Notes: generated by a model from the sequence alone, not told the origin. 64,000 bases of DNA from Minisyncoccota bacterium (GCA_041917695.1 JAYRXE010000037.1:536173-600172); one strand, 5' to 3'. Positions 24,671-43,983 are shown, numbered from the stretch's first letter. Program-made: numbers and translations.

Positions 24671-24717
24671 GGCACCATTATATCACCTGACCGGCGGCGC
24701 GCCTACGCGCTCCGAGC

Positions 24718-26457: not shown

Positions 26458-26461
26458 GAGG

Positions 26462-26752: not shown

Positions 26753-26758
26753 AGGCGG

Positions 26759-27313
26759 TTACTTTTGATAATAAAATTCGACTTTGAGGTTCAGAGACTG
26801 GACCTCGCTTCCCGGAATGGGGCGGATCTCGGCGCTCTCCACGGAGGCGATGCGGACATTCGTCTCAAGCCCGCGGAGAAAGCCCTTCAAAGATTCATAG
26901 GAGCCCGCAAGCGCCATGGTTACCCGCACGGTGCCCAATTGCTTCACGAGGTACTCTTTCGATTTGGGGAGGGCGGGCGTCTCGATGGAAAAAGACGTGA
27001 ACGTCGCCTGGTTCGCCGAAGCGATGGCGTTCAATTGGTGGAGAAGGTCCGTCGTGTCGGGGCTTTCGGGAAGGGCGAGCGATACCGTCTCGCGCACTTC
27101 GTCCATTCCCTGCGATTCCGTGATGACGTTTTTCACCTGGTCGACGGCCGCCTTTTGTTCGGTAAAAAGATTTTCCTTCGCAATGACCGCTCCGCGCTTC
27201 TCATTGATTGCCGCAAACTCGGGAAGGATGAGGCGCGTGTAAACGAAAATGGCCCCCATGAAAAAGAGTCCGGCGAAGGCGATGCTTAAAACGCGCTTGG
27301 TTGATGGTTTCAT
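26759..27313 (-). CDS. pilO: pilus assembly protein PilO-like
   Basis: N-terminal TM, coiled-coil, position after pilN. Confidence 0.65.
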   Translation of the reverse strand: MKPSTKRVLSIAFAGLFFMGAIFVYTRLILPEFAAINEKRGAVIAKENLFTEQKAAVDQVKNVITESQGMDEVRETVSLALPESPDTTDLLHQLNAIASANQATFTSFSIETPALPKSKEYLVKQLGTVRVTMALAGSYESLKGFLRGLETNVRIASVESAEIRPIPGSEVQSLNLKVEFYYQK

Positions 27314-27314
27314 G

Positions 27315-27893
27315 TTAGAGCGATGCGAATATCTCGTCGCGCGGATACAATTCGACGGTAAAAACGACGCGGCCCTGGTCGAATCCCATCTGGCGGACCG
27401 TCGCGCGCGTCTTAAAATCGGATGAACCGTCGAAAACGGAAAGTTGTTCGACGAATGAATCGATTGAGTTCGCGCGCCCGTTCACTTCAAGCTTTTTATC
27501 GCGCGGGGAAATTTTCGCCGAGACATAATACACCGACGGCAAGGTATGTTTTTCAAGCAATGCCAGGGTAGGGGCGCCTGCGGAATGCTTTTTCAAAACT
27601 TCCGTGAGATTGACGAGTTGAGAATAGAAAACGATGAACTGCTGCTGGTCTTCCTGGCTTACCACCGTCGCCAGCTGTTCGATGCGGCGGTCGAGCGCTT
27701 TTTCGCGCGAATCAAGGTACGTCGAATACCCGAATTTCAATCCGAGAAAAATGAAAAGCGTGAAACCGAAAACGACTCCGGCAAAAACCAATATCTTCCA
27801 CGGAAAACCGACCGCAATCGTGCGGTATCCGGCGGGAGTCGTCCCTGAATTTTGAACCATGTTCATGCCGTTAAGAGAAATAGCGCCGCGCAA
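27315..27893 (-). CDS. pilN: pilus assembly protein PilN-like
   Basis: Single TM then periplasmic domain; overlaps pilM by 23 nt. Confidence 0.65.
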   Translation of the reverse strand: MRGAISLNGMNMVQNSGTTPAGYRTIAVGFPWKILVFAGVVFGFTLFIFLGLKFGYSTYLDSREKALDRRIEQLATVVSQEDQQQFIVFYSQLVNLTEVLKKHSAGAPTLALLEKHTLPSVYYVSAKISPRDKKLEVNGRANSIDSFVEQLSVFDGSSDFKTRATVRQMGFDQGRVVFTVELYPRDEIFASL

Positions 27894-28977
27894 GTCCGTA
27901 CGTCAAAGCGAAACGATTTTCGAGATCCTTCATCGCAGGAACGAGACCCTGCGGAATCGCGATGCCCGACGTATATGAATGGTGGCCGATTTGGAAGCCG
28001 GTTTGGGCGCTCACATACCGTTCGAGGCCCAAAAGGCTTGCGCCGCCTCCCACGATTGAAAGTTTCTCGGCTTTTACGCCAAAAAGCTTCTCGTACGAAT
28101 CCTTCGCGCGCTTCACCTCTTGTATTATAACATCCAAAAAGGGCAGGAGGATAGTTGATAACTCCGATTCCGCGCCCGTTCCCGCAAGGCCGCGCCGGCG
28201 TTTCAGCTCTTCGGCGCGGGACATGGATATTTCAAGGCTTCGCGAAAGCGCCTGGGTGAGATATACCCCGCTGTAATCAGTTTGCGTCACGTATTGCACG
28301 TCCCCGGCGCGGACGATGGAAATGACGGAGGAAACGGCACCGATATCGAGCACGACAGTGGGCGCTTCCGTGAGCGACCCTTGAAGCGCGCGCGCCATCG
28401 CGAAAGCCTCCGGTTCAAGCGCAACCAGCTTCAACCCCGCTCGCTTGAAAACTTCTTCGTATGCCTTTACGACATCGTTCGGAACGGCAACCAGCAATAT
28501 TCGCTGGTGCTTCCCGCCGTCCTTGTCGGCGTATTCCCCGACCTTCCGCCATTCAAGCGAAACTTCGGAAAGCGGAAGCGGTACGTATTGCGCGGCCTGA
28601 AACCCGACGGCTTTCGCCGTTTCTTCGGGAGAAAGCATGGGAAAATCGAGCGTCGTTGCAAACGTGGTAAACGAGGGAAGCGACGCGACGCAGAGCTTTG
28701 ATGCGGGTTTCATGTCCCGCATAAGGAGCGAGAGCGCCGCGGCGGCATCCGCCGGCGAAAGTTTGAGCGAGCTCGTCTGTATCGCCTGGTTCGGATGGTC
28801 CAAATAGTCCTTCGTCTCTAGCAAGCCGTAGCTCGCCACCGAAAAGACATCCCCTTTTTTCTTCAGCTCGAGCGCTTTTATCGAGGTCGTTCCGATATCA
28901 ACGCCGATAACGGCTCCGCCCCGGAAAAAATTCCCGATATCCCTGAAAAAATCCGATATGGCGCCGCCGAACTTCAT
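27871..28977 (-). CDS. pilM: type IV pilus assembly ATPase-fold protein PilM (actin-like)
   Basis: VIGVDIGTTSIKALEL N-terminal actin-like phosphate-1 motif. Confidence 0.8.
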   Translation of the reverse strand: MKFGGAISDFFRDIGNFFRGGAVIGVDIGTTSIKALELKKKGDVFSVASYGLLETKDYLDHPNQAIQTSSLKLSPADAAAALSLLMRDMKPASKLCVASLPSFTTFATTLDFPMLSPEETAKAVGFQAAQYVPLPLSEVSLEWRKVGEYADKDGGKHQRILLVAVPNDVVKAYEEVFKRAGLKLVALEPEAFAMARALQGSLTEAPTVVLDIGAVSSVISIVRAGDVQYVTQTDYSGVYLTQALSRSLEISMSRAEELKRRRGLAGTGAESELSTILLPFLDVIIQEVKRAKDSYEKLFGVKAEKLSIVGGGASLLGLERYVSAQTGFQIGHHSYTSGIAIPQGLVPAMKDLENRFALTYGLARRYFS

Positions 28978-29023
28978 ATGAATGTGGATTTATCTTAACA
29001 TCCGCGCGAGCTATAGTGAAACG

Positions 29024-29716
29024 ATGGAGGCCTTCTCTCGCGCCGTCGACACGATCTTCCCGCGCACCTGCCTTTCCTGCGGCACTCCCGTCTCCGGACC
29101 ACTCCTTTTTTGCGCCGAATGTCTCGCGCGCGTCGGTACGATTGGCGAGTACGTGTGCTCTTCATGCGGGGCGCGCATCGCCGGAACCGGACATCGGCAT
29201 CCCGGAAGCATTCCCCTTTTCGCGGCTTTTCGGTACGAAGACGGGCCCGTGAAAGAATCCCTGCATGCGTTCAAATACGACGGCGTCGAGGCGGCAGGGC
29301 GGACGTTTGCCCTCCTCGTCAATCCGCTTTTCCCGCGTCCCGTTTCGTCCGTCGCATTCGTACCCATTCCCCTTCATCCCTCGCGCGAACGGGAACGAGG
29401 ATACAACCAATCGGCTCTTTTTGCCGAAGCGATGGCCTCATTGCTCGCCGCGCGGGGCATTGGAGCAACGGTTTTGTCGGGCGTTTTGAGGCGGACGCGC
29501 AAAACACAGTCACAGACCGAGATGGAAAGCCACGCGGCGCGGCGCATAAATGTCCGCGATTCTTTCGAAGTCCGTACGGTGTCCGACTGTGCGTCGAGCC
29601 TGGTACTGCTTGTTGACGACGTTTCCACTTCGGGCGCGACCATTGAAGAAGCGGCTGCAGCGCTCAAAAAAGCACGAGTCCCGCATCTCGCGGGACTCGT
29701 GATTGCGAAAGCCTGA
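29024..29716 (+). CDS. comFC: ComF family competence protein (double zinc ribbon + phosphoribosyltransferase domain)
   Basis: CLSCGTPVSG...CAEC zinc ribbon; PRTase motif LVLLVDDVSTSGATIEEA; ORF opens at 28982, only 4 nt from the pilM start, so 29024 (MEAFSR) is the preferred start. Confidence 0.75.
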   Translation: MEAFSRAVDTIFPRTCLSCGTPVSGPLLFCAECLARVGTIGEYVCSSCGARIAGTGHRHPGSIPLFAAFRYEDGPVKESLHAFKYDGVEAAGRTFALLVNPLFPRPVSSVAFVPIPLHPSRERERGYNQSALFAEAMASLLAARGIGATVLSGVLRRTRKTQSQTEMESHAARRINVRDSFEVRTVSDCASSLVLLVDDVSTSGATIEEAAAALKKARVPHLAGLVIAKA

Positions 29717-29726
29717 GCTTCGCCCG

Positions 29727-32228
29727 TTAGCGCTCTTGGAAGCCTTGGTCGGAACGTCCGACATTCACGCAGTCGCGGTTCTGTACGCACTGCTGTTCGG
29801 ACGATTCGGAGAAATCGCCGCTTTGGAGGCCCGGAATGGAAGAGTCGCAGAAGCTGTTACGCATGCACACCGGGCGGTTTTCGATGGTCCCTCCCGCATC
29901 ATCTTTCAAGGTCTTTGCCGCGCGGAGATTAGACCAGGTGGGGTCTTCCGAAAGAATGGAAACGCGGTACAGATACACCGAATCCGAATCGAGTTCCTCG
30001 TCCTTAAACGCGGGATTTTTCGTTATAACCGCCGTACGGAAATAGGCGCTGTAGTCGGGACCCGCCGCCGTCGCGGGGAACTCAACGCCGAACTGGCGGG
30101 AAACAAACGCGATGCCGGTACGGGTGAAGTCGGCAATATGTCCGCCCAAGGAAGCGGCGGCATCAAACGACCGTTCAAAAAGTTCCTGAACCGCCCCTAA
30201 AAACGAAGCCGTGAGCGTGGTAAGCGAGCGCCCCGCGTTTAGATTTTCCTCCTCGCCTCCGGACCACCCGTGGGTATACGGGAACGGATCCGATTCAACG
30301 CACACAATATCGGGCTTCCCCGTCGAGCCCTTCATCGCCGTCGAATAAACGTCGCGGAGACTCAAGGCCGCGCACACTTTCACTTTGTACTGGTACTGGC
30401 GGCCGTTCCCAACATCGCCATCTTCAAATACATACTGTTGCGGTGAAGCCGGCGGCTCTTCGGCGGTCCATCCGAGCACTTGGCCGCGAACGAGCGCATA
30501 GTTCGCTCCGCCGTCTTCCGAACGCCACAATTCTTGCGTATACGGCACCCACACGGTCGGGTTTTCCCACGAAACTTGCACTTTCTTCGAGCCGGTTGCT
30601 TCAAAGCGGAGCGTATAGTTCCGCGAGGGCGTCACTTTCATGCGTTGAAGCTCGAACTCGTACGGCGTCGTTGCGCGGGAAGTGTCTTTCCAGTTCACGA
30701 TAATCGAACGCGACGAATTCGCGTAAGCGTTCATGCCGGTTACCGTACCAATCGGCGCGGGTGATTCGCCGGTTCGGCAGGATACGATCGGCGTGCGCAC
30801 CGAATATCCGTCGTTTGTGAAAACCGTCTCGAGTTCGTAATAATACGTGGTCTTTTCGTCGAGATCCGTATGTGCAAAGGAAGCGAGCGGACCATTCGAA
30901 GAAGCGATGACGGTTTGCGGCGGAGTCGCCTTCGCCCCGCGGACCGTCACGCGGTGCGCCGGATAATTCGTACTCGTGTAATTTTTCGTGATGATAAGCC
31001 GCATGGAGGTCTGGCCTTCGGGCAGACACACCAAATCATAGGGCCGGACGATGGTAATCGAATCCGTCACAATGCCGTTTTCAGTTTCTTCAGTTGAAGA
31101 AGCGCGGAGCGTCGTATTCGCCGGCTGCGGAATGCGGTCCGGGGCGGTATAGCGCGTGAATTGCGAAGGGCCCGAGAGCGACGGATTCATGCGTCCATAG
31201 GTGTCGTTCCCGCCGAGCGCGCCGGCGATGAACCAAGCGGTGGCAAGATTCGCGGAAAAATCCCGCGTATCGCGGATGGCGATTTTATGGGGTCCGGGCG
31301 GTTCGATGCCGTACGGTCCCGTCGAAGTGGGCGTAATGATGTTCAAAGACGACGAAGCAAAGACGAGCCACCCGCCGATAGTGTCCCCCGCCCACGCAAG
31401 GCCGGTGAGGACTTTATGATTCACCCCGCCGTTTCCCGCACAGCTTTCCCCCAGGGAGACGGGCGATTTACCTATCGTTACCGTCCCGCCCGTCGAGTCG
31501 CCGAAACAAAGGCCGAAATTGTTGCCGCCCGCCACACCGCGCAAGGAAACCCAGCCGCCCCACGAACCCGGCGCTTCGCCGTTTATAAACCGCGCCCATC
31601 CGTAGAGCTTCCCGTCTGCGCCGATTCGCGCCGCGCATTCCCCGTTCGGACATCCTTCCAAGTCTTCATCATTAAATGAAAGCCACCCGTACCCTGTTCC
31701 CGATTCATGAGCCGCCCACATGACGCCGTGCATAAGGCCGTCCGTATCGGCATAGACGCCGTACGGCACCGAGGAATGATTGCCCTTTCCCTGCTCCTGG
31801 CTCGCATTGTTCACGCTAATCCACCCGATACCCTTCCCCGCCATGGCACCCCATCCCACGCCGCGGACGATGCTTCCTTCGCGGATATTCAAATTGAGCG
31901 GTGCACGGGAAGTACCCGCGCCGGTAAGCGCCCCGCCTTGCTTCCGCTGAATTTCGTAGATGTACGAATTGCCGGTCGGCACATTCTGGTCCCGCCAGCT
32001 CGCGCCCGTTCCGACATTGATGTTTGTGGTGCCCCCTCCGGGAGTGCGGCGGATAAGCGTGTATGACTCCCCTCCTTGTGCAGCCGGCCATCCGTCTACG
32101 AAAACACTTGCAAAATTTTCAGTAATTGAAGAGACGCGGACACGGACGGAGAGCGTTTCCTGCGCGGAAACCGCGGATGCGGAAAGGAAAAGCAGGGCAG
32201 ATGCAAAAACGAGGAAAAATTTCTTCAT
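29727..32228 (-). CDS. large secreted protein (833 aa), Gly/Thr-rich beta-rich repeats, unknown function
   Basis: Signal peptide MKKFFLVFASALLFLSASAVSAQ at internal start (rc ATG 32226-32228); no catalytic motif. Confidence 0.55.
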   Translation of the reverse strand: MKKFFLVFASALLFLSASAVSAQETLSVRVRVSSITENFASVFVDGWPAAQGGESYTLIRRTPGGGTTNINVGTGASWRDQNVPTGNSYIYEIQRKQGGALTGAGTSRAPLNLNIREGSIVRGVGWGAMAGKGIGWISVNNASQEQGKGNHSSVPYGVYADTDGLMHGVMWAAHESGTGYGWLSFNDEDLEGCPNGECAARIGADGKLYGWARFINGEAPGSWGGWVSLRGVAGGNNFGLCFGDSTGGTVTIGKSPVSLGESCAGNGGVNHKVLTGLAWAGDTIGGWLVFASSSLNIITPTSTGPYGIEPPGPHKIAIRDTRDFSANLATAWFIAGALGGNDTYGRMNPSLSGPSQFTRYTAPDRIPQPANTTLRASSTEETENGIVTDSITIVRPYDLVCLPEGQTSMRLIITKNYTSTNYPAHRVTVRGAKATPPQTVIASSNGPLASFAHTDLDEKTTYYYELETVFTNDGYSVRTPIVSCRTGESPAPIGTVTGMNAYANSSRSIIVNWKDTSRATTPYEFELQRMKVTPSRNYTLRFEATGSKKVQVSWENPTVWVPYTQELWRSEDGGANYALVRGQVLGWTAEEPPASPQQYVFEDGDVGNGRQYQYKVKVCAALSLRDVYSTAMKGSTGKPDIVCVESDPFPYTHGWSGGEEENLNAGRSLTTLTASFLGAVQELFERSFDAAASLGGHIADFTRTGIAFVSRQFGVEFPATAAGPDYSAYFRTAVITKNPAFKDEELDSDSVYLYRVSILSEDPTWSNLRAAKTLKDDAGGTIENRPVCMRNSFCDSSIPGLQSGDFSESSEQQCVQNRDCVNVGRSDQGFQER

Positions 32229-32296
32229 TAGAATCATTATATCAGACCCCGTATTCCAACTCATTCGGGAAATATGTGGAAAAGTTAGCCTCAAAA

Positions 32297-32326
32297 CAAA
32301 AACCCGCCGGGCGGCGGGTTTTTGTT
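32297..32326 (-). terminator. intrinsic terminator
   Basis: aaacccgccgg-gcggcgggttt directly after the stop of the 522-aa gene. Confidence 0.6.
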
Positions 32327-33895
32327 TTATCGATATTGGAAACACCGGGCGGTACACCGGAGACCGCGAGCGCCACCACCCTTCATATTCATTTCCCAAT
32401 TAGTGCCGTTCACACGCACATTGCATTTACCAAATTGAATGGTGTCATCCGATTCGAAGCCAGTCAAAGCGCAAAAGTAATTTGCCGTTGGCAAAATCGT
32501 ATTAGTCAATTCCTGCCGATTAACCGACACCCACGTGAATTCCTGGAACTGCTGGGTGGGATTCGGCTCCTCGCAGACGAGCCAGCCCTGCGCATCAACT
32601 TTCAAGAACTTGCGGACGCCGATGCCGTTCACGTTGAAACACGTCGTAGCGAGTACGTTATCCAAGTTCACCTTGAGACCTCCCGTATGATTCGGATCGG
32701 TAATGGAAAGCGTTTTCCCGAATTCTTGCTTCAAAGAAACGGTGTCGGAGCCGTTCGGATGCGTAAGCTCGATTCTGCCGGGGCGGAAAGTTCCGCCGTA
32801 AGTACCGCCCACCTTGAGCACGCTCTCACTCCCGGAGGAACCAACGATCTGTACCGGACCGCTTTGGGCCGCGAGGCGATCCTTGATGAGCATCATGCCG
32901 TCCTGGCCGACGCTCAATTGGGTGGCGTTCGCATTGTTTACGAAAGAAAGCGTCCCGCCGATGTTTTTAAGGGTATACGGCGTCACGTTCGTCGGAGCTA
33001 ACTTCACATCGTTTTGTGCGGTCACGGCGCCTTGCGCAGTGAACGTTGCCTGGGCAGTAAGCGGACGTGCCGCCGTGACGTTCCCTGTCGCCGCATCTAT
33101 TGAAAGAGCGGTCGTCCCTCCCGCCTGGGCGTTTGCAGAGTTGATAAGACCGTTATTCGTTTGGTTGCCCCCTCCGCCGTTTGTCACCTGGAAATTCACG
33201 GCGTTTGCCGTCACTTGCGTATTGAAATTCACGCCGTTTGTCGCACCGACGCTCACGACCGTCGTCGTTGTATAGACGCCGCCGCGGCCGAGTGCCCAAA
33301 AATTCGCGGAGATGTTATTGATAGTCCCGCCTCCGCCGCCAACCTTCACCCAGCATCGTCCCGCCTGGGCGTTTGCCGAGGGAATGAACGCCTCCTGCTG
33401 GCCCTGTGCGCAGTTTGTTCCGCCCGTAAAAAGCCATAAATCACCATTATCGTAGGTTATGGTGCCGGCAGGCACTCCCGTTCCTAAAACAGTTGTCGAA
33501 TAGCTGGGGAGCACTACCCCCTTAGTCTGAATAAGAAACGGATTTGTGCTGTTTGTCAGCACGGTATATCCACTCGCTGATAAGTAAAATGAATTATTGC
33601 CCGGTTGCGAGCGCACGGAAGCGCCATCTTGTAATATTAGTCCACTTCCACTGTTCTTATTCGCCTCAAGGTAATCAACTTTAATGCCGGCACTTTTTGC
33701 TTGAAATGTCTGCCCTATATCAATAGGAGCGGTAGTGTTTCCACCTGGAAATTGCTGGGTGGGCGGCGTCCACGTCGAAGGACCGCGCTGACCAAATACC
33801 TGCGTCGCGGAAAAAAGAAGCACTCCCGCGAAAAGACCGGCTAAAAGGAATCTCGAAAGTTTCATAGGCTTTTTATCTTGCTTTAAGTATAGCAA
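32327..33895 (-). CDS. secreted Gly/Thr/Asn-rich protein (522 aa) with Cys-containing C-terminal domain
   Basis: Signal peptide MKLSRFLLAGLFAGVLLFSATQVFGQ; low-complexity repeats; C-terminal ...FCALTGFESDDTIQFGKCNVRVNGTNWEM... Confidence 0.55.
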   Translation of the reverse strand: MLYLKQDKKPMKLSRFLLAGLFAGVLLFSATQVFGQRGPSTWTPPTQQFPGGNTTAPIDIGQTFQAKSAGIKVDYLEANKNSGSGLILQDGASVRSQPGNNSFYLSASGYTVLTNSTNPFLIQTKGVVLPSYSTTVLGTGVPAGTITYDNGDLWLFTGGTNCAQGQQEAFIPSANAQAGRCWVKVGGGGGTINNISANFWALGRGGVYTTTTVVSVGATNGVNFNTQVTANAVNFQVTNGGGGNQTNNGLINSANAQAGGTTALSIDAATGNVTAARPLTAQATFTAQGAVTAQNDVKLAPTNVTPYTLKNIGGTLSFVNNANATQLSVGQDGMMLIKDRLAAQSGPVQIVGSSGSESVLKVGGTYGGTFRPGRIELTHPNGSDTVSLKQEFGKTLSITDPNHTGGLKVNLDNVLATTCFNVNGIGVRKFLKVDAQGWLVCEEPNPTQQFQEFTWVSVNRQELTNTILPTANYFCALTGFESDDTIQFGKCNVRVNGTNWEMNMKGGGARGLRCTARCFQYR

Positions 33896-33956
33896 ATCTT
33901 TTCTTGTAAAAATGGGGATAAGAAAAACCCCTCCTTCGAGGGGTTCTTGAGATAAT

Positions 33957-34859
33957 TTACTTCACAACCGTCATTTTCCTTGCTTCAACAAAATCTTTTG
34001 CTTCTAACCGGTAAAAGTAGGTTCCACTTGCCAAGTGTGAAGCATCAACGTCGGCTTCATAGCTTCCTTTTCCCATCTCTCCGTCAACGAGCGTCTGCAC
34101 TTCGCGCCCGGCGATGTCATATACCTTTAAGGATACATGGCTTCGTTCGGGAATCGTGAAGGCAATCTTCGTCTTTGGATTGAACGGATTCGGATAGTTT
34201 TGACTGAGAGAGAACTCTTTAGCCGTCTGGTTTTGATTCTGAATGCCGGTAAGGCCTCCTTCAAAATCATCTACTACTGCTTGTGGTTGCCAAAATTGGG
34301 CAAAGGTCCAATAATCCCATTTTATTTTGCAACGTATCGAATCATTGGCGGGGGTGCCATTGAAATACAAATCAAACTTTATGCGAATAGCGCTAACCAT
34401 AGCAGGAGGGTTTTGGCCACCGATTGGAATCAGTTCTACTCCCCATGTGTTGGTTATTTCGCCCACTCCAAGTTGGATTGGACCCACCTCACAAAAATTC
34501 ACTCCATCACCTGAAATATAAAATGTGGTTTTCACATATACGTTCCCAACATAGGGATCAAGTTGAACCAATTTTTCGTAGACAACGCATTGCAGGTAAC
34601 TACTTCTTGATATTGAAGTCTGAAGATCTTTAGTTACTTCAAAACTTCCCTGCTGGAATGCGCGCCCTTCAAAGCAAACGGATCTCTGGCCATAATAATG
34701 ATCAGATTCGGATGTCATTTTAATGAATCCGATGTTTCCGGTTGTTGAAGTTACATACATTCCGTTTATGCCTTCCCCTTCTACTTGCGGGTCGGCAAAC
34801 GTTTGGAACACTCCTATAAATAAGAGAGCTCCAAAAAGAAGAAAACTTAAGAATTTCAT
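33957..34859 (-). CDS. secreted protein with T9SS (Por) type-A C-terminal sorting domain
   Basis: C-terminus SQNYPNPFNPKTKIAFTIPERSHVSLKVYDIAGREVQTLVDGEMGKGSYEADVDASHLASGTYFYRLEAKDFVEARKMTVVK is a near-consensus Por_Secre_tail; signal peptide; AT-rich. Confidence 0.65.
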   Translation of the reverse strand: MKFLSFLLFGALLFIGVFQTFADPQVEGEGINGMYVTSTTGNIGFIKMTSESDHYYGQRSVCFEGRAFQQGSFEVTKDLQTSISRSSYLQCVVYEKLVQLDPYVGNVYVKTTFYISGDGVNFCEVGPIQLGVGEITNTWGVELIPIGGQNPPAMVSAIRIKFDLYFNGTPANDSIRCKIKWDYWTFAQFWQPQAVVDDFEGGLTGIQNQNQTAKEFSLSQNYPNPFNPKTKIAFTIPERSHVSLKVYDIAGREVQTLVDGEMGKGSYEADVDASHLASGTYFYRLEAKDFVEARKMTVVK

Positions 34860-35021
34860 TCGAAACTCTCCTTTCTGTATTTATTTTTTTATTAATTATT
34901 TCTATCTTTATTATACCACATCCGTATGTTTTTTGCAATACATCCGTGGCAACTTGTCAAGGGTCTCTACAGCAAAGACGCTTCTCCCCTCCTCAAAGTT
35001 TCCCTTGCTTTTGAAATCCAC

Positions 35022-35537
35022 TTAAAACCCGCGTTTTTCTCGTTTTTTCAGTATTTCCTGGGTTTTCTCCATTACCCGCTCGTACTCCTTAACAGTCGAA
35101 AGACCAGCTTGCTTCCTTCTTTTTTCTAATTCCTTCTTATTCTCCACGGGAGCTAACTCAATTTTCCCCTTCTTGTTTCTTCGAAATTGCGTGCCATAGA
35201 TTTGCTTTTTCCCCTTATGGACGCATATCCGGTCGGTAAGAAACGCCTCGTCAATTTGGTTGAATCCGCAGTGAAAGAGGCAATTTTCCTGGAGCTCGGT
35301 GTCCGTTTGATGCTGTATGAGCAGCCAGAATTGATGGAGCGCTTTCGCCCCTACCATCTTCTTTGTCGGATAGCCGTGTTTTTCAATGATGTGCCGGACC
35401 TTGAATGTATGGATGTTATCTACGGCATATATGAGCCAGTTAAGCGGTCCCTTGCCGGGAGTGGCGAGATTGCGGGTCCGTTGATCCGCTTCATACATTT
35501 CCGCTATCTCGTGCTGGATTTCTTTTTTCATTTTCAT
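35022..35537 (-). CDS. hypothetical protein
   Basis: Start at MKMKKEI (rc ATG 35535-35537) overlapping the upstream gene stop (ATGA); no recognised domain. Confidence 0.45.
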   Translation of the reverse strand: MKMKKEIQHEIAEMYEADQRTRNLATPGKGPLNWLIYAVDNIHTFKVRHIIEKHGYPTKKMVGAKALHQFWLLIQHQTDTELQENCLFHCGFNQIDEAFLTDRICVHKGKKQIYGTQFRRNKKGKIELAPVENKKELEKRRKQAGLSTVKEYERVMEKTQEILKKREKRGF

Positions 35538-36109
35538 AAAACTTTTTTGACGCCGGCAAGATAGACGGCATCCATATCGTGTTCCGCTTCCGGAATCTCG
35601 ATTGCCCGCCATCCCTTTCGCCTCCCGAGCTTTTCCGCCCGTCCTTTAAGCACGGGGTGTTCCTTACTGCCGTAGAGCAACGTCACTTTTTTTGCGAGCA
35701 AGGGCGCATAGTCAAGTTTTTTCATTTCTCGCAACTGAATTGCGGAAAAATCGGAAAGTTCTTTCTTTTTATACCAATTCAAATCTTCGCCTAAAACGGG
35801 GGGCAAGGAACAAAGTAGTACATGCGTGAAGCGAACCCTCCTTGCAGCCAGATACGCTTCAAGTGCGCCTATGGAAAATCCCATAATCGTATCACGAGGC
35901 ATTGCGCTTGAGGATACTTGATTGATGATTCCATGGATAATTTCGGATAAGGGTGCGGGCCCTCCGAGGGAATATTTTCTATTTCTTGTGAAAAGCCGGA
36001 GGGGTATATAAGTATATTTTTTTGAAATGATTGCAATAAGGTTCCGATAATTTTCATCGGTAATCCGATGGCCCCATCCAGGCAAGATATAGATGTTTGG
36101 CTTCATCAC
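35534..36109 (-). CDS. alpha/beta-hydrolase fold protein (GxSxG)
   Basis: GFSIGA nucleophile elbow; ~190 aa. Confidence 0.5.
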   Translation of the reverse strand: MMKPNIYILPGWGHRITDENYRNLIAIISKKYTYIPLRLFTRNRKYSLGGPAPLSEIIHGIINQVSSSAMPRDTIMGFSIGALEAYLAARRVRFTHVLLCSLPPVLGEDLNWYKKKELSDFSAIQLREMKKLDYAPLLAKKVTLLYGSKEHPVLKGRAEKLGRRKGWRAIEIPEAEHDMDAVYLAGVKKVL

Positions 36110-36184
36110 TAGCTAGTATTCATTATGCCCCTTTTCGAGGTTCCGGCTCAAAAAATCTAACGCCACCCTTACTACCTCAACAAG

Positions 36185-37456
36185 CTAAATTAATACTTCC
36201 CGTGCAAAAGAATTCTTTTTGACCGGACCCACCACCGCAAGATTCATATTTTTATTCGTAAAAAGAGCCTTTGCTACTGCATGAATTTCAGCGCGGGTGA
36301 CTTTTTTATATCGCTGAATTATCTCTTCAATCGGCTCAATTTTCCCCTCCATAATTTCCTGTTCTCCCGAAAAAAGAGCCCAGTCTTCCGAAGTTTCGTT
36401 TGCTATACTCTGCCTTGCAATACTATATTCCTTCGTTCTCACTAATTCCTCTGAAGAAACGCCATTCTGTACGATGTCTCGCAGTTCATTGCGGATGACT
36501 TTCAAAACTGCAGAAAATCTTTGATTTTCTATTCCTCCCGCAATCGCAAAACATCCATGATCGGACCCTAAAATAGTTGTCGCCCCTATGCTATACGCAG
36601 CCCCCATCTCCCCATAGATTTTCTGCCATAATCGGGAACTCTCGGTACCCCCCAAGATGCTTTCCAAAACACGCACGGCGGAGTGCCTCTTGTCCGAAAC
36701 GGGAAACGCTCGAAATCCAAGCACGAAATTAGTCTGATTCGATTTTTTTCGCAAAATGTTTTCCACGAATCCTTGCTGATTTTCATCAACTCTTTTTTTG
36801 GGAATGACTTCTTTCCCCTCTTTGCCGGCAAATGCCTTAACAATCTCCTTTTGAATCATCGTTTGCGAAACATTCCCAGCGATTGAAATAACGATTTGGC
36901 TAGGCAGGTAATACCGCGCATGGTACGCACGAAGGTCCGCGGCGGAAATTTTTTTGATGCTTGTCGGAGTGCCTAATATTCTTCTCCCCGCCGCTTCCTG
37001 CGGGTAAAGCGTACTGTTGAACCTATCCCAGACGACGGACTGAGGATCGTCTTCATTCATGTTAATTTCCTCAATTACCACGCCTTTTTCTTTCGCAACA
37101 TCTGCGGCGTTCAGCGATGGATTGCAAATCACATCAAAGAGAACTTTTGATGCCGACTGGAAATCCTGGTTCGCCGCTTTCACGTAATAATAGGTACACT
37201 CATTTGAAGTGAAAGCCTCTGAAGAAGTACCTAGCGACTCAAAAGCCTGAGAAATAGCTCGATGATTTGGGTACTTTTTCGTTCCTCGAAAACACATATG
37301 CTCGAGAAAATGAGAGATTCCATTTTCTTGCTCGTTTTCATATTCGCTCCCGACCCGAACGAAAACAGCCGTGGTTACGGTAGCGCTTTCCGGCAAATGC
37401 GTATGGAGGAGGGTGAGGCCGTTTTTTAGTTTTGCTTTAGTCGTTTTAGGCATCAC
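36185..37456 (-). CDS. M16 family zinc peptidase (pitrilysin-like)
   Basis: Inverted zinc motif HFLEHM and downstream Glu; 423 aa. Confidence 0.75.
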   Translation of the reverse strand: MMPKTTKAKLKNGLTLLHTHLPESATVTTAVFVRVGSEYENEQENGISHFLEHMCFRGTKKYPNHRAISQAFESLGTSSEAFTSNECTYYYVKAANQDFQSASKVLFDVICNPSLNAADVAKEKGVVIEEINMNEDDPQSVVWDRFNSTLYPQEAAGRRILGTPTSIKKISAADLRAYHARYYLPSQIVISIAGNVSQTMIQKEIVKAFAGKEGKEVIPKKRVDENQQGFVENILRKKSNQTNFVLGFRAFPVSDKRHSAVRVLESILGGTESSRLWQKIYGEMGAAYSIGATTILGSDHGCFAIAGGIENQRFSAVLKVIRNELRDIVQNGVSSEELVRTKEYSIARQSIANETSEDWALFSGEQEIMEGKIEPIEEIIQRYKKVTRAEIHAVAKALFTNKNMNLAVVGPVKKNSFAREVLI

Positions 37457-37798
37457 GCTTATCCTACTGCGAAAAATTTAGAGGTACAACACTCTTCAAT
37501 AAAAAGAGTCGCAGTTATAGCGACTCTTTGTGCATCCATACTATCTTATCTGGGTTTTGGATGCGGCTTTGGTGTCGGTTTGGGCCTTGGCCTTCCCGGC
37601 GGATGATATCTGCCCCTTGGCATACTCTATGGCTCCTTTCTGCTTATTTATATTTATTAGCTCTCTACTGAGAGAAGATACTCAAGCAGGTACCTTTTTA
37701 ATTTCAAACCTAAACTCTCATTAAACTATAGCTCAAAGAATTAAAATGGCAATACCCTGGCGTACATTTGTCAAGATTCCTTATAGTTAAAGGCCACG

Positions 37799-37824
37799 AA
37801 AAACCCGCCGAATGGCGGGTTTTC
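37799..37824 (-). terminator. intrinsic terminator
   Basis: aaaacccgcc-gaat-ggcgggtttt. Confidence 0.6.
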
Positions 37825-37838
37825 TTGGGGTAAAGGAC

Positions 37839-39260
37839 TTATCGGCAATACCCGGCAATGTCCGTCCCTAAACAAATCGTGCACCCGAGCGCCGTCCAAC
37901 CATTGGTAACACCTGAAGGAACTTCATCAGGAACACCCACCCCTCCTGAAATGCTTCGCGGATCGCAGGTGGGAACCGAGTAGGCTACATGGCTACACGA
38001 GTTATTGGCATCAAATATAGCGCCCGATGTGCAGGTATAGGTTGGCTCAAAATCACTGCCAACGCCGCCTTCAGCTACCCCAAAAACTTCAGTGGTTTGT
38101 ATCTGACCGTTACCAGCGTCATATGATGCCCAACCCCCTTCGTTCATTCTATCGCAGTTATAATCAAAATCTTTTTCCGCGATGGGATTTATGAAATAGC
38201 TTGTCTGCCCGGGAAAGGCATTCGCATTATCGTCATGGCAATCAAGTCCCCCGTTCGGCAGCTCGCCAATATTCGGGTTCCACGGCCGCGAAGGCGAATC
38301 CTTCACGCGTACCTCAGGGGTGCACTGGTCGAGACATTCGTAGTGCATCGTACCAAGGTCGTCCGTAAACGTATCACTGTCGACGTCGTTGTACCACAAG
38401 AGCGCTTCCTTTATCTTTGCCGTCGAGCCGGTTTGGAGCGTTATCGCCCCGCTACTGATACGCAATGAGGCGTTATGGTCGGCATCGCCATTCCAAACAA
38501 GTGTTGAATTACCCGTAAGGTTGACGGTATTGTCTCCGAGCAACAAATCGCCGCCGTCAAAGCCCTCAACGCCCGTCGTCGGAGAACACGAACCCTGCAA
38601 ATTGCCATTCGCGTCGAAGACGCATTCAGGATCGGACCACGCGAGGGTGAGTGTGGCGGTATCGCCGTTAATGTCTTCCGCGACGAATTTCGTGTGATAG
38701 GTCTTCGTATGCGTGTCGTTCACGACCCATGCTCCTTCATATGAATACTCCATGAGCGCCTGCGCCTCGGCTTTCGAGACAAGCTGGTTCAAGACGCTTT
38801 CGGCGTAACCGTTTCCTTTATTGATGATAAGCGTGCCTTCATCGCTCACGAGATACGGCTGTGAACGGAAGTAATCCGCGGAAAGCGCTTTCGATTCTTT
38901 CATCGTAAGCGGAATCTCCTGCGTCTTTGAATCGGTGTCGATGACCGCCTTCACGCTTTTAAGCGCTACGGGACTCGCGATGCGCACCTGCATGAGCTGG
39001 GTATCGCCAACGCGCACCTTCAAGGGGCTCACGACGCCGCCCGTGAACTTCGGGTATTCCCCGGAGCTCGCGGTGAAGCGGTATTCGCCGTCGGTCGGCA
39101 ACTGCCACTCCTGCCCCCGGGCGTTTACGTAATACTCGCCGAGCTTGTTCGACGCATTGGGAACGAGGCCGTTCCAGAAATAATATCCGGCGACCAGAAG
39201 AAACGCGATGCCGACGACAACTGCGATCGTCGACTTCTCTTTTTGGGTAAAGTTTTTCAT
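37839..39260 (-). CDS. membrane-anchored extracellular Cys-rich protein (473 aa)
   Basis: N-terminal TM anchor; about 20 Cys in the C-terminal half; no known motif. Confidence 0.5.
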   Translation of the reverse strand: MKNFTQKEKSTIAVVVGIAFLLVAGYYFWNGLVPNASNKLGEYYVNARGQEWQLPTDGEYRFTASSGEYPKFTGGVVSPLKVRVGDTQLMQVRIASPVALKSVKAVIDTDSKTQEIPLTMKESKALSADYFRSQPYLVSDEGTLIINKGNGYAESVLNQLVSKAEAQALMEYSYEGAWVVNDTHTKTYHTKFVAEDINGDTATLTLAWSDPECVFDANGNLQGSCSPTTGVEGFDGGDLLLGDNTVNLTGNSTLVWNGDADHNASLRISSGAITLQTGSTAKIKEALLWYNDVDSDTFTDDLGTMHYECLDQCTPEVRVKDSPSRPWNPNIGELPNGGLDCHDDNANAFPGQTSYFINPIAEKDFDYNCDRMNEGGWASYDAGNGQIQTTEVFGVAEGGVGSDFEPTYTCTSGAIFDANNSCSHVAYSVPTCDPRSISGGVGVPDEVPSGVTNGWTALGCTICLGTDIAGYCR

Positions 39261-39439
39261 ATAGCTGTAAACCCTGCGCCGGCGACATCCGGCTTTTACT
39301 TGGTTTTATTATACCAAACCCCCTTGACAAGCCTGCCGGAAATACTTGAAAAAATAATACATATGTGTTATAATAAACTTAGTAATAAATTAAAAATATA
39401 AAAAGGCTGAAACGCCTCATTACGAAAGGAGTTTTCTCA

Positions 39440-40870
39440 ATGAAAACGATATGTGCTTTAACTCTATTCATCCTGGGAAATCTTCTTTTTTCCCAGCCGT
39501 ATACGCTCGTTCCCGAGTGGAGCAAAAACTTCACCCTGGGCGGGAACTCGGATGATTTTAAAGGAGTCGTCGTGAACAACGCTGATTTCAGCGTTTTCGT
39601 AAACGGTAATATCAGCACCACGGGATTTTCCTCCAGTGGGTTGGTAAAGCTTTCGCCTGTTGGAGATTCATTATGGGCCGTAACAGACAGCATAAATTCC
39701 ACAAGCTCCAATTCTCAGCAAATGATATATCACGAAGCTAGCGGAAAAACATTTTATGTTTCAAACGGCACCCAGTATTACCTTATTTCTCGAAATAAGG
39801 ATACGCGCGCGATTGAAAACATAGTTGCCTTCCCTACTCTGATCCACCTTGGCGACTACGGAGACTCATTGGTTGCAATCACCCATGAATCAAACGGCAA
39901 GATTCTTATCCTTGATGCCAACGGCGCCACAAAGCGGCAGTTCAACCTGGGCTATAACACCAACGTGGGAACCTTCACGCTTCGCGTGTGCGGTACTCAT
40001 CTCTGGATTATCGGCCTTCAGAACACTCAAACCGGTTTCTGCGCCAAGTACAACCTTTTTACCGGCCAGGAATTATGGAGGGTAAGCGTGCCTCGCCTCA
40101 TCCGCCCCTTCGGCGATGTTGACTCGCTTGGAAACGCATACCTCGGCGGAAGCAGGACTGACACCTTGAATGCGGCAGTGCTGAGATACAAGTGCATGAA
40201 GCTCAGTCCTTCGGGAGCGATCCTGTGGGATAAGGAAGCCTTGGTAAACCTTACCGACGCTGCCAATAACAACAACTGGGTGAACGGCGTTGCCGTATCG
40301 CTCCAGAAAAACGTTGTGGTCTTGGTCGGCGAAGCCGGAAAGGACAGTTTGGTGAACGACGGAAAGCGCGCCGGATACATCCGCATATTGAACATCACCA
40401 ATGGAGATTCAGTCCTTGCCATGAAGGTGTACATAAACCCCGTGGCCGGTTGGAATCAAATCCAGGGCGTGACGTTCGATATATATGGAAAGATGTATGT
40501 GGTCGGAAAGACCCGAGACGTCCTCTTGAACCCGGACAACACCGGTTTCGTCAGGAAGCTCAGGATTGATTCCCTCACGGGAATCAATGACCCCAGCGAG
40601 AATGCGGAAACATTCTCACTTGCCCAGAACTATCCGAACCCGTTCAATCCTACGACCACCATCCGCTTCTCAATTCCGAAGAAATCAGCCGTGAAGATAA
40701 CGGTATTCGATATCTTAGGCAAAGAAATCGCGATAGTGGCACAGAAAGAATATGGCAGAGGCGTTCATGAGCTCGGTTTTGACGGCTCAAATCTTTCAAG
40801 CGGCATCTACTTTTACCGCCTGGAAGCCGACGGCTTCAGCGAAACCAAAAAAATGATTCTCGTGAAGTAG
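39440..40870 (+). CDS. secreted beta-propeller-like protein with T9SS (Por) type-A C-terminal sorting domain
   Basis: Signal peptide; C-terminus AQNYPNPFNPTTTIRFSIPKKSAVKITVFDILGKEIAIVAQKEYGRGVHELGFDGSNLSSGIYFYRLEADGFSETKKMILVK; AT-rich. Confidence 0.65.
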   Translation: MKTICALTLFILGNLLFSQPYTLVPEWSKNFTLGGNSDDFKGVVVNNADFSVFVNGNISTTGFSSSGLVKLSPVGDSLWAVTDSINSTSSNSQQMIYHEASGKTFYVSNGTQYYLISRNKDTRAIENIVAFPTLIHLGDYGDSLVAITHESNGKILILDANGATKRQFNLGYNTNVGTFTLRVCGTHLWIIGLQNTQTGFCAKYNLFTGQELWRVSVPRLIRPFGDVDSLGNAYLGGSRTDTLNAAVLRYKCMKLSPSGAILWDKEALVNLTDAANNNNWVNGVAVSLQKNVVVLVGEAGKDSLVNDGKRAGYIRILNITNGDSVLAMKVYINPVAGWNQIQGVTFDIYGKMYVVGKTRDVLLNPDNTGFVRKLRIDSLTGINDPSENAETFSLAQNYPNPFNPTTTIRFSIPKKSAVKITVFDILGKEIAIVAQKEYGRGVHELGFDGSNLSSGIYFYRLEADGFSETKKMILVK

Positions 40871-40923
40871 TAACGCACTTCTCAAAGAGTTATTGGGGCG
40901 GTATCGCCGTTCCGCAATAATCT

Positions 40924-40949
40924 TATCCCCGCGACCTGCGGGGATTTTT
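40924..40949 (+). terminator. intrinsic terminator
   Basis: atccccgcg-acct-gcggggat followed by tttttatt. Confidence 0.6.
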
Positions 40950-40975
40950 TATTTCGCTCGGGCGCGTTTGATATA

Positions 40976-41467
40976 ATGAACCTAATGGAACCACAGAAAA
41001 ACAACGTGTTGCCGTTAGTGCTCCTCGCCGTCGGCATCATCCTCGGCTTCGCCGGAGGATATTTTTTGGGGACGAAGGCCCCGAAGGAAGAAGCGCGCAA
41101 TGCGAATCTTCAGGAACTCGTCGACGCGGCATACCCGAAACCGCCGGAGGATATCCGCACCGTGAACGCGAAGATCACGAAAATAGACGGAACGCGCATC
41201 GAGTTTGAAACCAACGATCCGGAGGATTATCTCCCGCACTCGGACGGTTCGGCGCCGTACACCATGACGCGCGTCGCCCGCGTAACGGACGCGACTGAGA
41301 TCTGGCTTCTTTCACCGACGAAAATCGATGCGAACGGGAACGTATCGAAGAAAAAACTTAAAATCACGGATTTGAAGGCCGGGGAGATGGTCGCCATCAC
41401 GGCTTCCGAAAACGTGCGCACCGCGAAAGAATTCGACACGCTCCTCATCGAGAAAGTCGAATACTAA
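40976..41467 (+). CDS. membrane-anchored hypothetical protein
   Basis: Single N-terminal TM; 163 aa. Confidence 0.45.
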   Translation: MNLMEPQKNNVLPLVLLAVGIILGFAGGYFLGTKAPKEEARNANLQELVDAAYPKPPEDIRTVNAKITKIDGTRIEFETNDPEDYLPHSDGSAPYTMTRVARVTDATEIWLLSPTKIDANGNVSKKKLKITDLKAGEMVAITASENVRTAKEFDTLLIEKVEY

Positions 41468-41487
41468 AGAAAAGCGGCAAAACCTTA

Positions 41488-41514
41488 AAACCTCCCGTTT
41501 CGGGAGGTTTTTTG
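41488..41514 (+). terminator. intrinsic terminator
   Basis: aaacctcccg-tttc-gggaggtttttt. Confidence 0.6.
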
Positions 41515-41548
41515 ACTGCCCTCCCCCGGCGTGCTAAAAAGCATACAT

Positions 41549-42139
41549 ATGAACCTCATTCCAACCGTCATCGAAAAGACCAATTACGGCGAACGCGCCT
41601 ACGACATCTACTCGCGCCTTTTAAAGGAACGCATCATCTTTTTGGGCGGTCCGGTGGACGACCATACGGCAAACAGCGTCATCGCCCAGCTCCTTTTCCT
41701 TGACAACGAAGATTCCAAAAAGGACATCAAGCTCTATATCAACTCCCCCGGCGGGTCGGTGACGGCGGGTCTCGCCATCTACGACACCATGCAGCACGTG
41801 AAGGCGCCGGTCTCGACCATCTGCGTCGGCATGGCAGCATCGATGGCGGCAGTGCTCCTTTCCGCCGGCGCGAAAGACAAACGCTTCGCCCTGCCGAATT
41901 CGGAAATCCTCCTCCACCAGGTCATGGGCGGCGCAGAAGGCCAGGCGACGGAAATCGAGATCACCGCCCGGCATATCTTGAAGATCCGCGAGCGTTTGAA
42001 CCAAATCCTCGTGAAACACACGGGCCAAAAGCTCGCGAAAATCGAGAAGGACACGGACCGCGATTTCTGGCTCTCGGCCGACGAAGCGAAAGATTACGGC
42101 GTCGTTGATACCATTCTGAAGCCTCACGGAAGGAGATAA
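41549..42139 (+). CDS. clpP: ATP-dependent Clp protease proteolytic subunit
   Basis: Catalytic Ser context [11 protein letters not shown], His in HQVMGG, Asp later; start MNLIPT (alternative 41531). Confidence 0.9.
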
Positions 42140-43380: not shown

Positions 43381-43983
43381 TTACGTGAGTCGTAAAGCGG
43401 TAGCTTTCTTTTTTCTTTTTTTCAGAAACTCGTGATAGAACAAACCAATCATCCAACAAGCGGCGATGAAGATAATTTCAAACGCGAGATAGATGCCAAG
43501 TTTCATTACAGACTTTTTTTCATAGATGCGTTGATGGATAATACCGTTTTCAAGCCATGGATCGCTTCTTTTTTCATGTTCAAGAAATAAGTAATTTGCA
43601 ACATCAGGGTATGAAACCCATGCCTTGAAGATATCCGGGCTATGTGGTTGCCTCCCCCATATTTGTCCGACCCGGTCCCCCGTAGCGATCCAAAGCGTCT
43701 CAAAAGGGCCTTCCTTCAAGAAATCCTCAAAGGAATTCAATGATATTTCGGAAATAGCATCCCCGTTTAATGCAAACACTTTGACGGACCGAGGATAACT
43801 ACTGGAGCCAATCTCTACGGCATTTTGGCTTGAAAATGGATCTTTCCCCAGCACTACCTCCTTGGCATCCACGTTAACCGTAACCGTTATTTCATCTTCC
43901 GGCGCCGTGAAAAAAAGGAAAAAAGTGCTTCCTGCCATGAGGCTGAAAACCACCGCAGAAATGATTATGGCTGCTTTCTTCAT
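43381..43983 (-). CDS. membrane protein (N- and C-terminal TM), unknown function
   Basis: 200-aa ORF with signal/TM segments. Confidence 0.45.
   Translation of the reverse strand: MKKAAIIISAVVFSLMAGSTFFLFFTAPEDEITVTVNVDAKEVVLGKDPFSSQNAVEIGSSSYPRSVKVFALNGDAISEISLNSFEDFLKEGPFETLWIATGDRVGQIWGRQPHSPDIFKAWVSYPDVANYLFLEHEKRSDPWLENGIIHQRIYEKKSVMKLGIYLAFEIIFIAACWMIGLFYHEFLKKRKKKATALRLT

Follow-up and report, generated by a model that had tools for sequence, protein, structure and literature searches.

Two genes in a 64,000-nucleotide stretch of a Minisyncoccota genome (GCA_041917695.1, JAYRXE010000037.1:536173-600172; the whole stretch is called here the window, and positions are counted from its first letter) encode proteins that end in the type-A sorting domain of the type IX secretion system (T9SS). 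This C-terminal domain (CTD) is usually taken as diagnostic of outer-membrane transport in the Fibrobacteres-Chlorobi-Bacteroidetes (FCB) superphylum, and the host is, as judged from its genes, a Paceibacteria/Minisyncoccia bacterium of the candidate phyla radiation (CPR). The two proteins, called here CTD1 (open reading frame (ORF) 33957-34859, minus strand, 300 amino acids) and CTD2 (ORF 39440-40870, plus strand, 476 amino acids), are probably adhesin- or lectin-type surface proteins in which the tail would serve as a docking or anchoring module, captured from Ignavibacteria in close contact with the clade.

Identity of the two C-terminal tails

The last ~75-87 residues of CTD1 and CTD2 correspond to the type-A T9SS sorting domain. 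Against TIGR04183 (curated cut-off, 23 bits), the full-length proteins scored 40.1 bits (E = 2.7e-10) and 52.4 bits (E = 3.9e-14), respectively, and the isolated tails 43.4 and 54.1 bits. Against PF18962 (curated cut-off, 27 bits), the scores were 40.8 bits for CTD1 and 48.4 bits for CTD2, and the whole domain was covered. The TIGR04183 matches extended over positions 2-70/71 of the 72 positions of the profile and stopped at residue 297 of 300 in CTD1 and 474 of 476 in CTD2, i.e. at the extreme C-terminus. When the whole window was scanned in six frames with a hidden Markov model (HMM) of 14 tails of the family, only these two tails were matched, with E ~1e-44, whereas the next-best match had an E-value of 0.33; the tails are therefore real and not chance matches. 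The preliminary description of this DNA, which had reported two ORFs ending in type-A T9SS tails, is thus borne out by two families above their cut-offs.

The tail of CTD1 (residues 214-300 and the stop codon; 33957-34220, minus strand) ends in KMTVVK and that of CTD2 (residues 390-476 and the stop codon; 40607-40870, plus strand; located at 40613-40867 by tblastn) ends in KMILVK. They carry the motifs of known type-A CTDs (QNYPNPFNP, YD..G[RK]E, SG.YFYR and KKM.L.K), and their predicted fold is an Ig-like seven-stranded beta-sandwich that superposes, in the AlphaFold2 models, on a solved CTD. By sequence, position and predicted fold, the two tails are unambiguous members of TIGR04183/PF18962. 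We do not assign the proteins to the functional class of T9SS cargo, since neither a T9SS nor an outer membrane is likely to occur in cells of this lineage.

Predicted anatomy and N-terminal domains

The architecture of both proteins was deduced from AlphaFold2 models computed from family alignments, with a mean predicted local distance difference test (pLDDT) score of 81 for CTD1 and 83 for CTD2 (predicted TM-score of 0.71 for CTD2). CTD1 is modelled as a helix (residues 3-15), a jelly-roll (residues ~25-197; 34269-34787, minus strand), a disordered linker (residues 202-214) and the sandwich tail (residues 217-298). CTD2 is modelled as a hydrophobic helix (residues 2-16), an all-beta propeller of ~28 strands (residues 21-378; 39500-40573, plus strand) with pLDDT values mostly of 80-96, a disordered linker (residues 379-389) with pLDDT values below 50, and a seven-stranded sandwich (residues 391-474). 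The N-terminal sequences, MKFLSFLLFGALLFIGVFQTFA/DPQ in CTD1 and MKTICALTLFILGNLLFSQP in CTD2, read as Sec-type signal peptides, and residues 2-16 are modelled as a helix in both proteins. A lipoprotein anchor was also considered and rejected, as no lipobox is conserved among the orthologues.

The N-terminal domain of CTD2 matched beta-propellers with a Foldseek probability of 1.00, among them CylK, BamB, WD40 proteins and YncE; PorZ was found at rank 31 of the same list (E = 3.4e-8). A search of the CTD2 family profile against the sequences of the PDB gave no match, and the SBBP domain (PF06739), annotated in distant full-length relatives, was not detected in the CTD2 of the window. The N-terminal domain of CTD1 resembles in fold the solved beta-jelly-roll carbohydrate-binding modules (CBMs) of families 11/17/27/28/30, with a sequence identity of 8-12%. 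Outside the tails, no Pfam or NCBIfam match was obtained in CTD1 or CTD2. Because of this lack of a family match and of the 8-12% identity, CTD1 is described here as CBM-like in fold and is not filed as a CBM.

Conservation of the locus in CPR relatives

CTD1 and/or CTD2 were found in place in the CPR loci L003 (ENA ANAN16-1), L006 (GCA_041643275.1), L012/L013 (GCA_964357525.1, Hainich groundwater), L094, L095 and L096 and, with part of the arrangement, in L007. Altogether, eight diverged CPR loci keep the CTD genes beside a backbone that runs from the type IV pilus/ComF genes to ClpP and TyrRS. The common order begins with PilM(NO), a ComF-like gene, a ~830-aa secreted protein, a ~510-760-aa secreted protein and the CTD1-type gene, followed by variable cargo; it continues with a ~480-510-aa Cys-rich membrane-anchored protein, divergent from the CTD2-type gene, then the CTD2-type gene itself, a 160-aa membrane protein, ClpP, TyrRS and, further on, an ECF sigma factor. 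In L095 only the CTD1-type gene is present, and the pair formed by the 473-aa gene (the window's member of the Cys-rich family) and CTD2 is missing. Housekeeping proteins of these loci are 82-88% (ClpP), 56-64% (PilM), 63-66% (LigA) and 44-60% (TyrRS) identical to those of the window, and the locus proteins 41-55% (845-aa protein), 44-49% (473-aa protein), 31-51% (CTD1) and 36-42% (CTD2). L095 and L096 come from members of ~35-37% GC, and the clade is therefore deep.

Origin of the CTD genes

Outside the group of CPR orthologues, CTD1 and CTD2 have their named relatives in Ignavibacteria, Ignavibacteriales, Melioribacteraceae, Chlorobi OLB5 and Bacteroidota. Over its full length, CTD1 is 44% identical to a gene of L010 and 40% identical to a gene of L009. 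L010 is a contig of 34% GC, and its MutS shares 90% identity with that of an Ignavibacteriaceae metagenome-assembled genome (MAG) and 73-81% with those of dozens of other Ignavibacteria; L009 belongs to a MAG labelled Ignavibacteria. Trees of the N-terminal domains were built by neighbour-joining on Poisson distances with 500 bootstraps. In the CTD1 tree, the window copy grouped with P0253, P0254 and the L003 copy (bootstrap 0.96); this group joined the Ignavibacteriaceae pair P0256/P0257 (0.96) and then the L009 gene (1.00). The positional counterparts of CTD1 in L006/L094, L012/L096 and L095 fell outside this clade of window and Ignavibacteriaceae sequences. This placement indicates that at least one inter-phylum exchange took place after the CPR clade had diversified, the simplest account being that an Ignavibacteria gene replaced the copy resident in CPR. 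In L009, the two paralogues that lie in tandem sit in different parts of the CTD1 tree, which suggests that the diversity of the family is native to Ignavibacteria.

The CTD2 tree has another shape. All copies in a CPR context, together with two of unplaced context, formed one clade (0.99), and a named FCB protein and proteins from contigs of 95-905 kb remained outside it. This topology fits a single early acquisition followed by vertical descent.

A search of viral sequences gave 41 viral-classified contigs (L097-L137, IMG/VR) with type-A tails 29-57% identical to that of CTD1. The N-terminal domain of CTD1 was not found in the IMG/VR viral contigs, and these gave no sign of a phage vector. 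Another CPR-labelled protein, P0098 (MBP7846128.1), is annotated 'T9SS type A sorting domain-containing protein [Candidatus Pacebacteria bacterium]' and has different N-terminal domains, of the ASH/DUF1573 type; it may indicate that CTD proteins occur in other CPR bins, and a mis-binning of P0098 is possible.

The exchange with Ignavibacteria raises the question of whether the tails are directed at a host. According to this hypothesis, the clade would live on T9SS-bearing Ignavibacteria, and its tails would engage an exposed PorV or the PorU/PorZ attachment complex, so that the lectin and propeller proteins of the symbiont dock on the host surface or are even ligated to it, or are processed by the attachment complex. 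Several observations are in line with such mimicry. The CPR tails have not drifted away from those of Ignavibacteria: the two sets are 47-66% identical, as close as the CPR tails are among themselves, and TIGR04183 scores them equally (43-54 bits for CPR tails and 52-53 bits for Ignavibacteria tails). The gene exchange with Ignavibacteriaceae postdates the diversification of the CPR clade, the locus adjoins genes for type IV pili, which CPR use for attachment to their hosts, and Ignavibacteria have been reported to co-occur with a Parcubacteria organism and proposed as hosts. Furthermore, gene sharing between groundwater Patescibacteria and Bacteroidota (in GTDB usage, which includes Ignavibacteria) is about threefold more frequent than expected, which has been read as a possible host-symbiont signal; the over-representation of Bacteroidota among the donors of genes to Patescibacteria also agrees with the FCB origin of the CTD genes (PMC12455944). 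Nevertheless, it is on the periplasmic side that a T9SS reads the CTD, docking from outside not being known, and CTD2 shows no recent exchange. We therefore regard mimicry of this kind as unlikely.

Maintenance of the tail in CPR cells

In the verified CPR loci, all 12 CTD genes are intact and end in ...[KR]M..[VILT][KR] followed by the stop codon. Mean identity among the CPR copies was 59-61% for the tails as compared to 30-37% for the N-terminal domains. The proportion of nonsynonymous differences (pN) in the tails was 0.14-0.30, and that of synonymous differences (pS) was saturated at 0.57-0.94. As a result of this saturation dN/dS was mostly not computable and only the inequality dN << dS is used; where the ratio could be computed, it was 0.17-0.28. 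As judged from these comparisons, the CPR tails are under purifying selection.

The tails do not always share the history of the domains that precede them. The L094 protein pairs with that of L006 in the N-terminal domain (1.00) and with that of L003 in the tail (0.90, 78% identity). Both tails encoded in L006 (genes 6889-7758 and 10001-11227) share the private variant NPFN[NS]STALSFKL.AAS..RLVVYD, and the two L009 paralogues (1772-2650 and 2829-3689) have 100% identical tails and diverged N-terminal domains. Given the conflict between the two trees and this homogenisation within genomes, we conclude that tails are exchanged or homogenised as modules. Such an exchange fits selection for tails that match a common partner.

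These data bear on the possibility that the tail is neutral baggage, imported from an FCB donor and either not yet decayed or constantly refreshed. The inter-phylum exchange in the CTD1 tree would agree with a relic, as would the variable cargo between the 512-aa and 473-aa genes, an insertion hot spot (see below), and the fact that the CTD genes are richer in AT than their neighbours in every genome of ~50% GC. On the other hand, the 12 copies, spread over eight loci, are all intact, conservation of the tail is double that of the N-terminal domain, with dN far below dS, and vertical lineages (L006-L094, L012-L096-L095 and the whole CTD2 clade) keep canonical tails although their housekeeping proteins are at 44-64% identity. 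In addition, the CTD genes have promoter-like and terminator-like signals of their own, as consensus matches. A functionless relic thus appears improbable.

Base composition was analysed further. The GC content (GC at third codon positions) is 0.43 (0.40) for CTD1 and 0.49 (0.61) for CTD2, against 0.54-0.60 (0.62-0.76) for the neighbours. The 473-aa gene between them is host-like with a GC content of 0.54, and the genes for the M16 peptidase, DUF6624 and the 190-aa protein are at 0.45-0.46. The GC offset of the CTD genes is repeated in the orthologues of L003, L006 and L012, relatives of ~50% GC, and vanishes in L095, a relative of low GC content, when third codon positions are compared. As it persists in the orthologues, the low GC content is a standing property of these genes and not the mark of a recent arrival; it probably reflects a combination of a high content of N, S, T, K and Y in the proteins, a weak codon bias and an occasional renewed import from donors of 34-36% GC. 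Other AT-rich patches with a GC content of 0.30-0.44 lie at 13910-14774, 10529-11161, 43381-43983, 51273-51656 and 63295-63645 and contain small ORFans with no Pfam match, so that low GC here generally marks accessory or ORFan genes and not the CTD genes specifically.

No tRNA gene was found between 11.9 and 44.1 kb and no mobility Pfam family was detected. Direct or inverted repeats suggesting a mobile element were likewise absent from the flanks, where only short weak repeats in promoter regions were seen. A recently acquired island was rejected, since CTD1 and/or CTD2 occupy the same position in related loci and no mobility signatures are present.

These results refine several statements of the preliminary description. 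It had placed the two genes in AT-rich islands of a high-GC genome; the window has a moderate GC content of 52.8%, and, of the genes assigned to the islands, CTD1, CTD2 and those for M16, DUF6624 and the 190-aa protein are indeed low in GC, but they do not form one island, the 473-aa gene being at 0.54 and similar patches occurring elsewhere. An acquisition from an FCB donor, possibly as non-functional cargo, had also been put forward. The FCB origin is retained, as CTD1 has full-length relatives in Ignavibacteriaceae and the window copy is nested among them, but a recent or non-functional acquisition does not agree with eight loci, intact genes and selection on the tail. Best hits consistent with the host lineage, which had been named among the findings that would refute the earlier interpretation, are seen for CTD2 and in part for CTD1.

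Host lineage and cell envelope

The closest named relatives of the NAD-dependent DNA ligase LigA encoded in the window are 59-66% identical and belong exclusively to MAGs of Minisyncoccia, Parcubacteria, Paceibacterota or the 'Patescibacteria group', in agreement with the assignment of the host given above. The NCBI contig on which the proteins of the window are recorded measures 679,953 bp, as is usual for a CPR genome. A mis-binning of the whole window as FCB DNA was considered and rejected, as housekeeping genes of CPR type flank the locus on the same contig. The 64 kb carry 12 tRNA genes, six of which are clustered at 8.8-11.9 kb (8828-11948) and none of which flanks the CTD locus; this tRNA density, together with the small genes, is consistent with a small, gene-dense CPR genome.

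A type IV pilus/competence cluster extends from 19881 to 29716 on mixed strands, with genes for a pilin-like protein, PilD, a pilin, PilC, PilT, PilB, further genes, PilN/O-like proteins and PilM on the minus strand and a ComF-like gene on the plus strand. Reading this cluster confirmed that the operon lacks PilQ: no secretin is encoded in the type IV pilus operon within the 64-kb window. Nor were outer-membrane, lipopolysaccharide or T9SS families found among the window ORFs scanned, which upholds the previously noted absence of lipopolysaccharide and T9SS genes, and the Pfam annotations already available for ~100 kb of related loci contained no T9SS or outer-membrane family. CPR and Chloroflexi have been described as one monoderm clade (10.1101/2021.05.31.446380), and cryo-transmission electron microscopy of groundwater CPR cells has revealed a surface layer and no outer membrane, with pili attaching the cells to Gram-negative hosts (PMC7906910). 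Taken together with the lineage of the host, these data lead us to infer that its cells have no outer membrane.

Could the clade nevertheless have a machinery of its own that sorts these proteins by their tails, whether a T9SS accompanied by an outer membrane or some analogue not yet recognised? None of the hallmarks of functional type-A CTDs has been lost from the tails, the conserved secreted or membrane neighbours without annotation (845, 512, 473 and 160 aa) could be partners, and the scan covered only 64 kb of the genome. Yet CPR are monoderm and the groundwater cells that were imaged had no outer membrane, the pilus system has no secretin, and no T9SS or outer-membrane Pfam family occurs in the window or in the related loci. 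Moreover, the more than ten genes that a T9SS requires, including that of a translocon of ~2,400 aa, would weigh heavily on a genome of ~0.7 Mb, and L095 keeps CTD1 without the 473-aa gene. Genuine sorting of this type is thus very improbable.

Integrity of the assembly

An independent Logan contig of 16,329 bp (run SRR26835159) is 100% identical to positions 25289-41617 of the window. It crosses all four borders that had been proposed for the AT-rich DNA (~33.9, 37.8, 39.3 and 40.9 kb), and the CTD1 and CTD2 ORFs are called identically in the independent assembly. The same gene arrangement was found in at least seven other assemblies from different samples and sources (ENA, NCBI, JGI and Logan). 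The earlier suggestion of a chimeric or contaminated assembly, in which FCB DNA would be stitched into a CPR contig and for which the local drop in GC content and the FCB-type domain are the only support, is practically without probability in view of this identity across every border, of the arrangement shared by relatives and of the host-like 473-aa gene lying between CTD1 and CTD2.

Proposed role of the CTD proteins

The observations described above can be assembled into the following scheme. CTD1 and CTD2 would be two Sec-exported surface or extracellular binding proteins, one with a CBM-like jelly-roll and the other with a beta-propeller, each joined by a flexible linker of ~10 residues to a canonical type-A CTD. 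Their genes would form part of a variable locus for surface proteins, flanked by the type IV pilus/ComF operon on one side and by ClpP-TyrRS on the other, which a deep CPR clade has conserved. They would have come from FCB bacteria of Ignavibacteria type by horizontal transfer, once and early in the case of CTD2; CTD1 would later have been exchanged or replaced in this position one or more times. In a single-membrane cell, export by Sec alone would place the proteins outside. If the cell has no outer membrane, the tail therefore cannot direct translocation across such a membrane and must have been kept for some other use. We propose that it is a docking or anchoring beta-sandwich that would hold the binding domain on the surface of the cell itself or of a partner.

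Some considerations weigh against this scheme. To our knowledge, no mechanism accounts for the conservation of a canonical CTD without a T9SS. The lack of T9SS and outer-membrane genes was surveyed over 64 kb and is assumed for the whole genome from the lineage. Part of the conservation of the tail could reflect re-import or recombination instead of selection inside CPR cells. The trees were computed by neighbour-joining on very divergent sequences, with several leaves lacking a genomic context, and the branching order they suggest should be read accordingly. Lastly, Sec export is predicted from a reading of the sequence and from the modelled N-terminal helix, and the putative functions of the N-terminal domains are deduced from similarity of fold.

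Neighbouring genes

The 473-aa protein (37839-39260, minus strand) is encoded divergently from CTD2 and is kept with it in L003, L006, L012 and L007 (44-49% identity), always as a divergent pair. It is anchored in the membrane at its N-terminus, and its C-terminal half is rich in Cys and contains DCHDDNANAFPG, which resembles the metal-binding repeats of MopE type. On the other side, the gene for a 512-aa secreted lineage-specific protein (32327-33865, minus strand) adjoins CTD1; it is present in all related loci and has no Pfam match. It is followed by the gene for an 845-aa secreted lineage-specific protein (29727-32264, minus strand), which gave a weak Fn3-like match in the PDB and is 41-55% identical to its counterparts in related loci. 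In all relatives, the 160-aa membrane-anchored protein (40985-41467, plus strand) is encoded between CTD2/CTD1 on its upstream side and ClpP-TyrRS on its downstream side. A 190-aa protein with a GFSIG motif, a possible alpha/beta-hydrolase (35534-36106, minus strand), is encoded beside CTD1 in L003 (58%) and L012 (64%) as well and has no Pfam match. For the 845-, 512-, 473-, 190- and 160-aa proteins, searches of Pfam (E <= 5) and of the PDB gave nothing meaningful.

The interval between the ~510-aa and ~480-aa genes is an insertion hot spot. In the window it holds variable cargo seen at this spot in this genome only (35022-37453, minus strand), namely genes with Pfam matches to DUF6624 (35022-35537) and to the M16 peptidases (36185-37453), interleaved with the gene for the 190-aa protein. 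The M16 peptidase has the HFLEH active-site motif and both M16 domains. Neither DUF6624 nor M16 is found at this position in L003, L006, L012, L094 or L095; in L003 the interval is occupied by an ATP-grasp gene, in L012 by one for DUF397, and in L006 it is empty. The window as a whole is rich in predicted surface proteins, among them the Fn3-like 845-aa protein and a 363-aa protein (49307-50398, plus strand) with fn3 and purple-acid-phosphatase-N Pfam matches.

Expression signals

The two best extended -10 promoter matches of the region lie directly upstream of CTD1 and CTD2. The site of CTD1 (34910-34938, minus strand; TTGCAA-17-TATAAT with TG) matches the consensus at 10 of 12 positions and that of CTD2 (39346-39374, plus strand; TTGAAA-17-TATAAT with TG) at 11 of 12, each being a consensus match only. 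It should be noted that shuffled sequence yields no fewer promoter-like sites than the region as a whole, so that it is the position and the quality of these two that count. A consensus ribosome-binding site, AAAGGAG, precedes CTD2 at 39426-39432 (plus strand), and a hairpin resembling an intrinsic terminator (40925-40945, plus strand; 9-bp stem with six G-C pairs, T-run) begins 55 nt past its stop codon. From these signals, CTD1 and CTD2 each look like a transcription unit of their own. The element TGGTATAATAAA (coding strand, extended -10) occurs upstream of both CTD1 (34907-34923) and the 473-aa gene (39305-39321), which hints at similar promoters for surface-protein genes.

Comparison with known systems

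CTD1 and CTD2 have the signal peptide-domain-linker-CTD architecture of type-A CTD cargo such as Tannerella forsythia mirolase (CTD 8qb1), the gingipains of Porphyromonas gingivalis and proteins of Ignavibacteria. They also share with such cargo the match above curated cut-offs, the motifs, a superposable predicted CTD fold and full-length homologues in Ignavibacteriaceae, and, as in genuine T9SS cargo, a disordered linker precedes their tails. They differ from it in their host, a CPR bacterium of a group described as monoderm; neither the window nor the related loci show any component of a T9SS or of an outer membrane.

The closest parallel to CTD2 in domain composition is P. gingivalis PorZ (5m11), which also combines a beta-propeller with a T9SS CTD. 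PorZ remains at the cell surface as a member of the attachment complex, and its CTD is not cleaved off, which makes it a precedent for a retained CTD. PorZ nevertheless has two propellers, its TM-score to CTD2 is low (0.29) and there is no sequence relation beyond the tail; the likeness gives no evidence that CTD2 belongs to a secretion complex.

The transfer proposed here resembles the gene flow from Bacteroidota to Patescibacteria described in groundwater (PMC12455944) and the host-derived surface genes of episymbionts: it crosses phyla, from a donor of the Bacteroidota group (Ignavibacteria) into Paceibacteria, in groundwater-type samples, and it concerns genes for envelope or surface proteins. 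The cases reported in the groundwater study are metabolic or housekeeping genes such as gyrB. In the literature, we found no description of T9SS sorting domains (Por_Secre_tail) in CPR/Patescibacteria and no case of transfer followed by long-term retention of a sorting domain specific to a secretion system. The NCBI pipeline already labels such CPR proteins automatically, P0098 being an example. For annotation, a TIGR04183 match alone is no proof of a T9SS in a genome, and those obtained in CPR bins should not be dismissed by default as contamination.

Conserved CPR tails mean either that the domain has a second function or that these episymbionts interact with a T9SS that belongs to another organism. 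Nearly all Parcubacteria/Paceibacteria lack a known host, and a surface-protein locus with Ignavibacteriaceae exchange beside attachment pili provides a concrete host hypothesis; if mimicry were true, the CTD genes would be a host-recognition device and a genomic marker of host identity. With regard to the docking or anchoring role favoured here, an analogy may be drawn with LPXTG/sortase, S-layer homology (SLH) and cell-wall-binding modules, which are likewise C-terminal and set the location of a Sec-exported protein on a single-membrane cell. The CTD tails differ from LPXTG and SLH modules in sharing no relation of sequence or fold with them and in having no LPXTG or SLH motif, and the SLH/CsaB system is reported to be lost in CPR. 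What would be new in comparison with all these systems is a known sorting domain conserved in a lineage and a cell plan in which its known mechanism should not apply.

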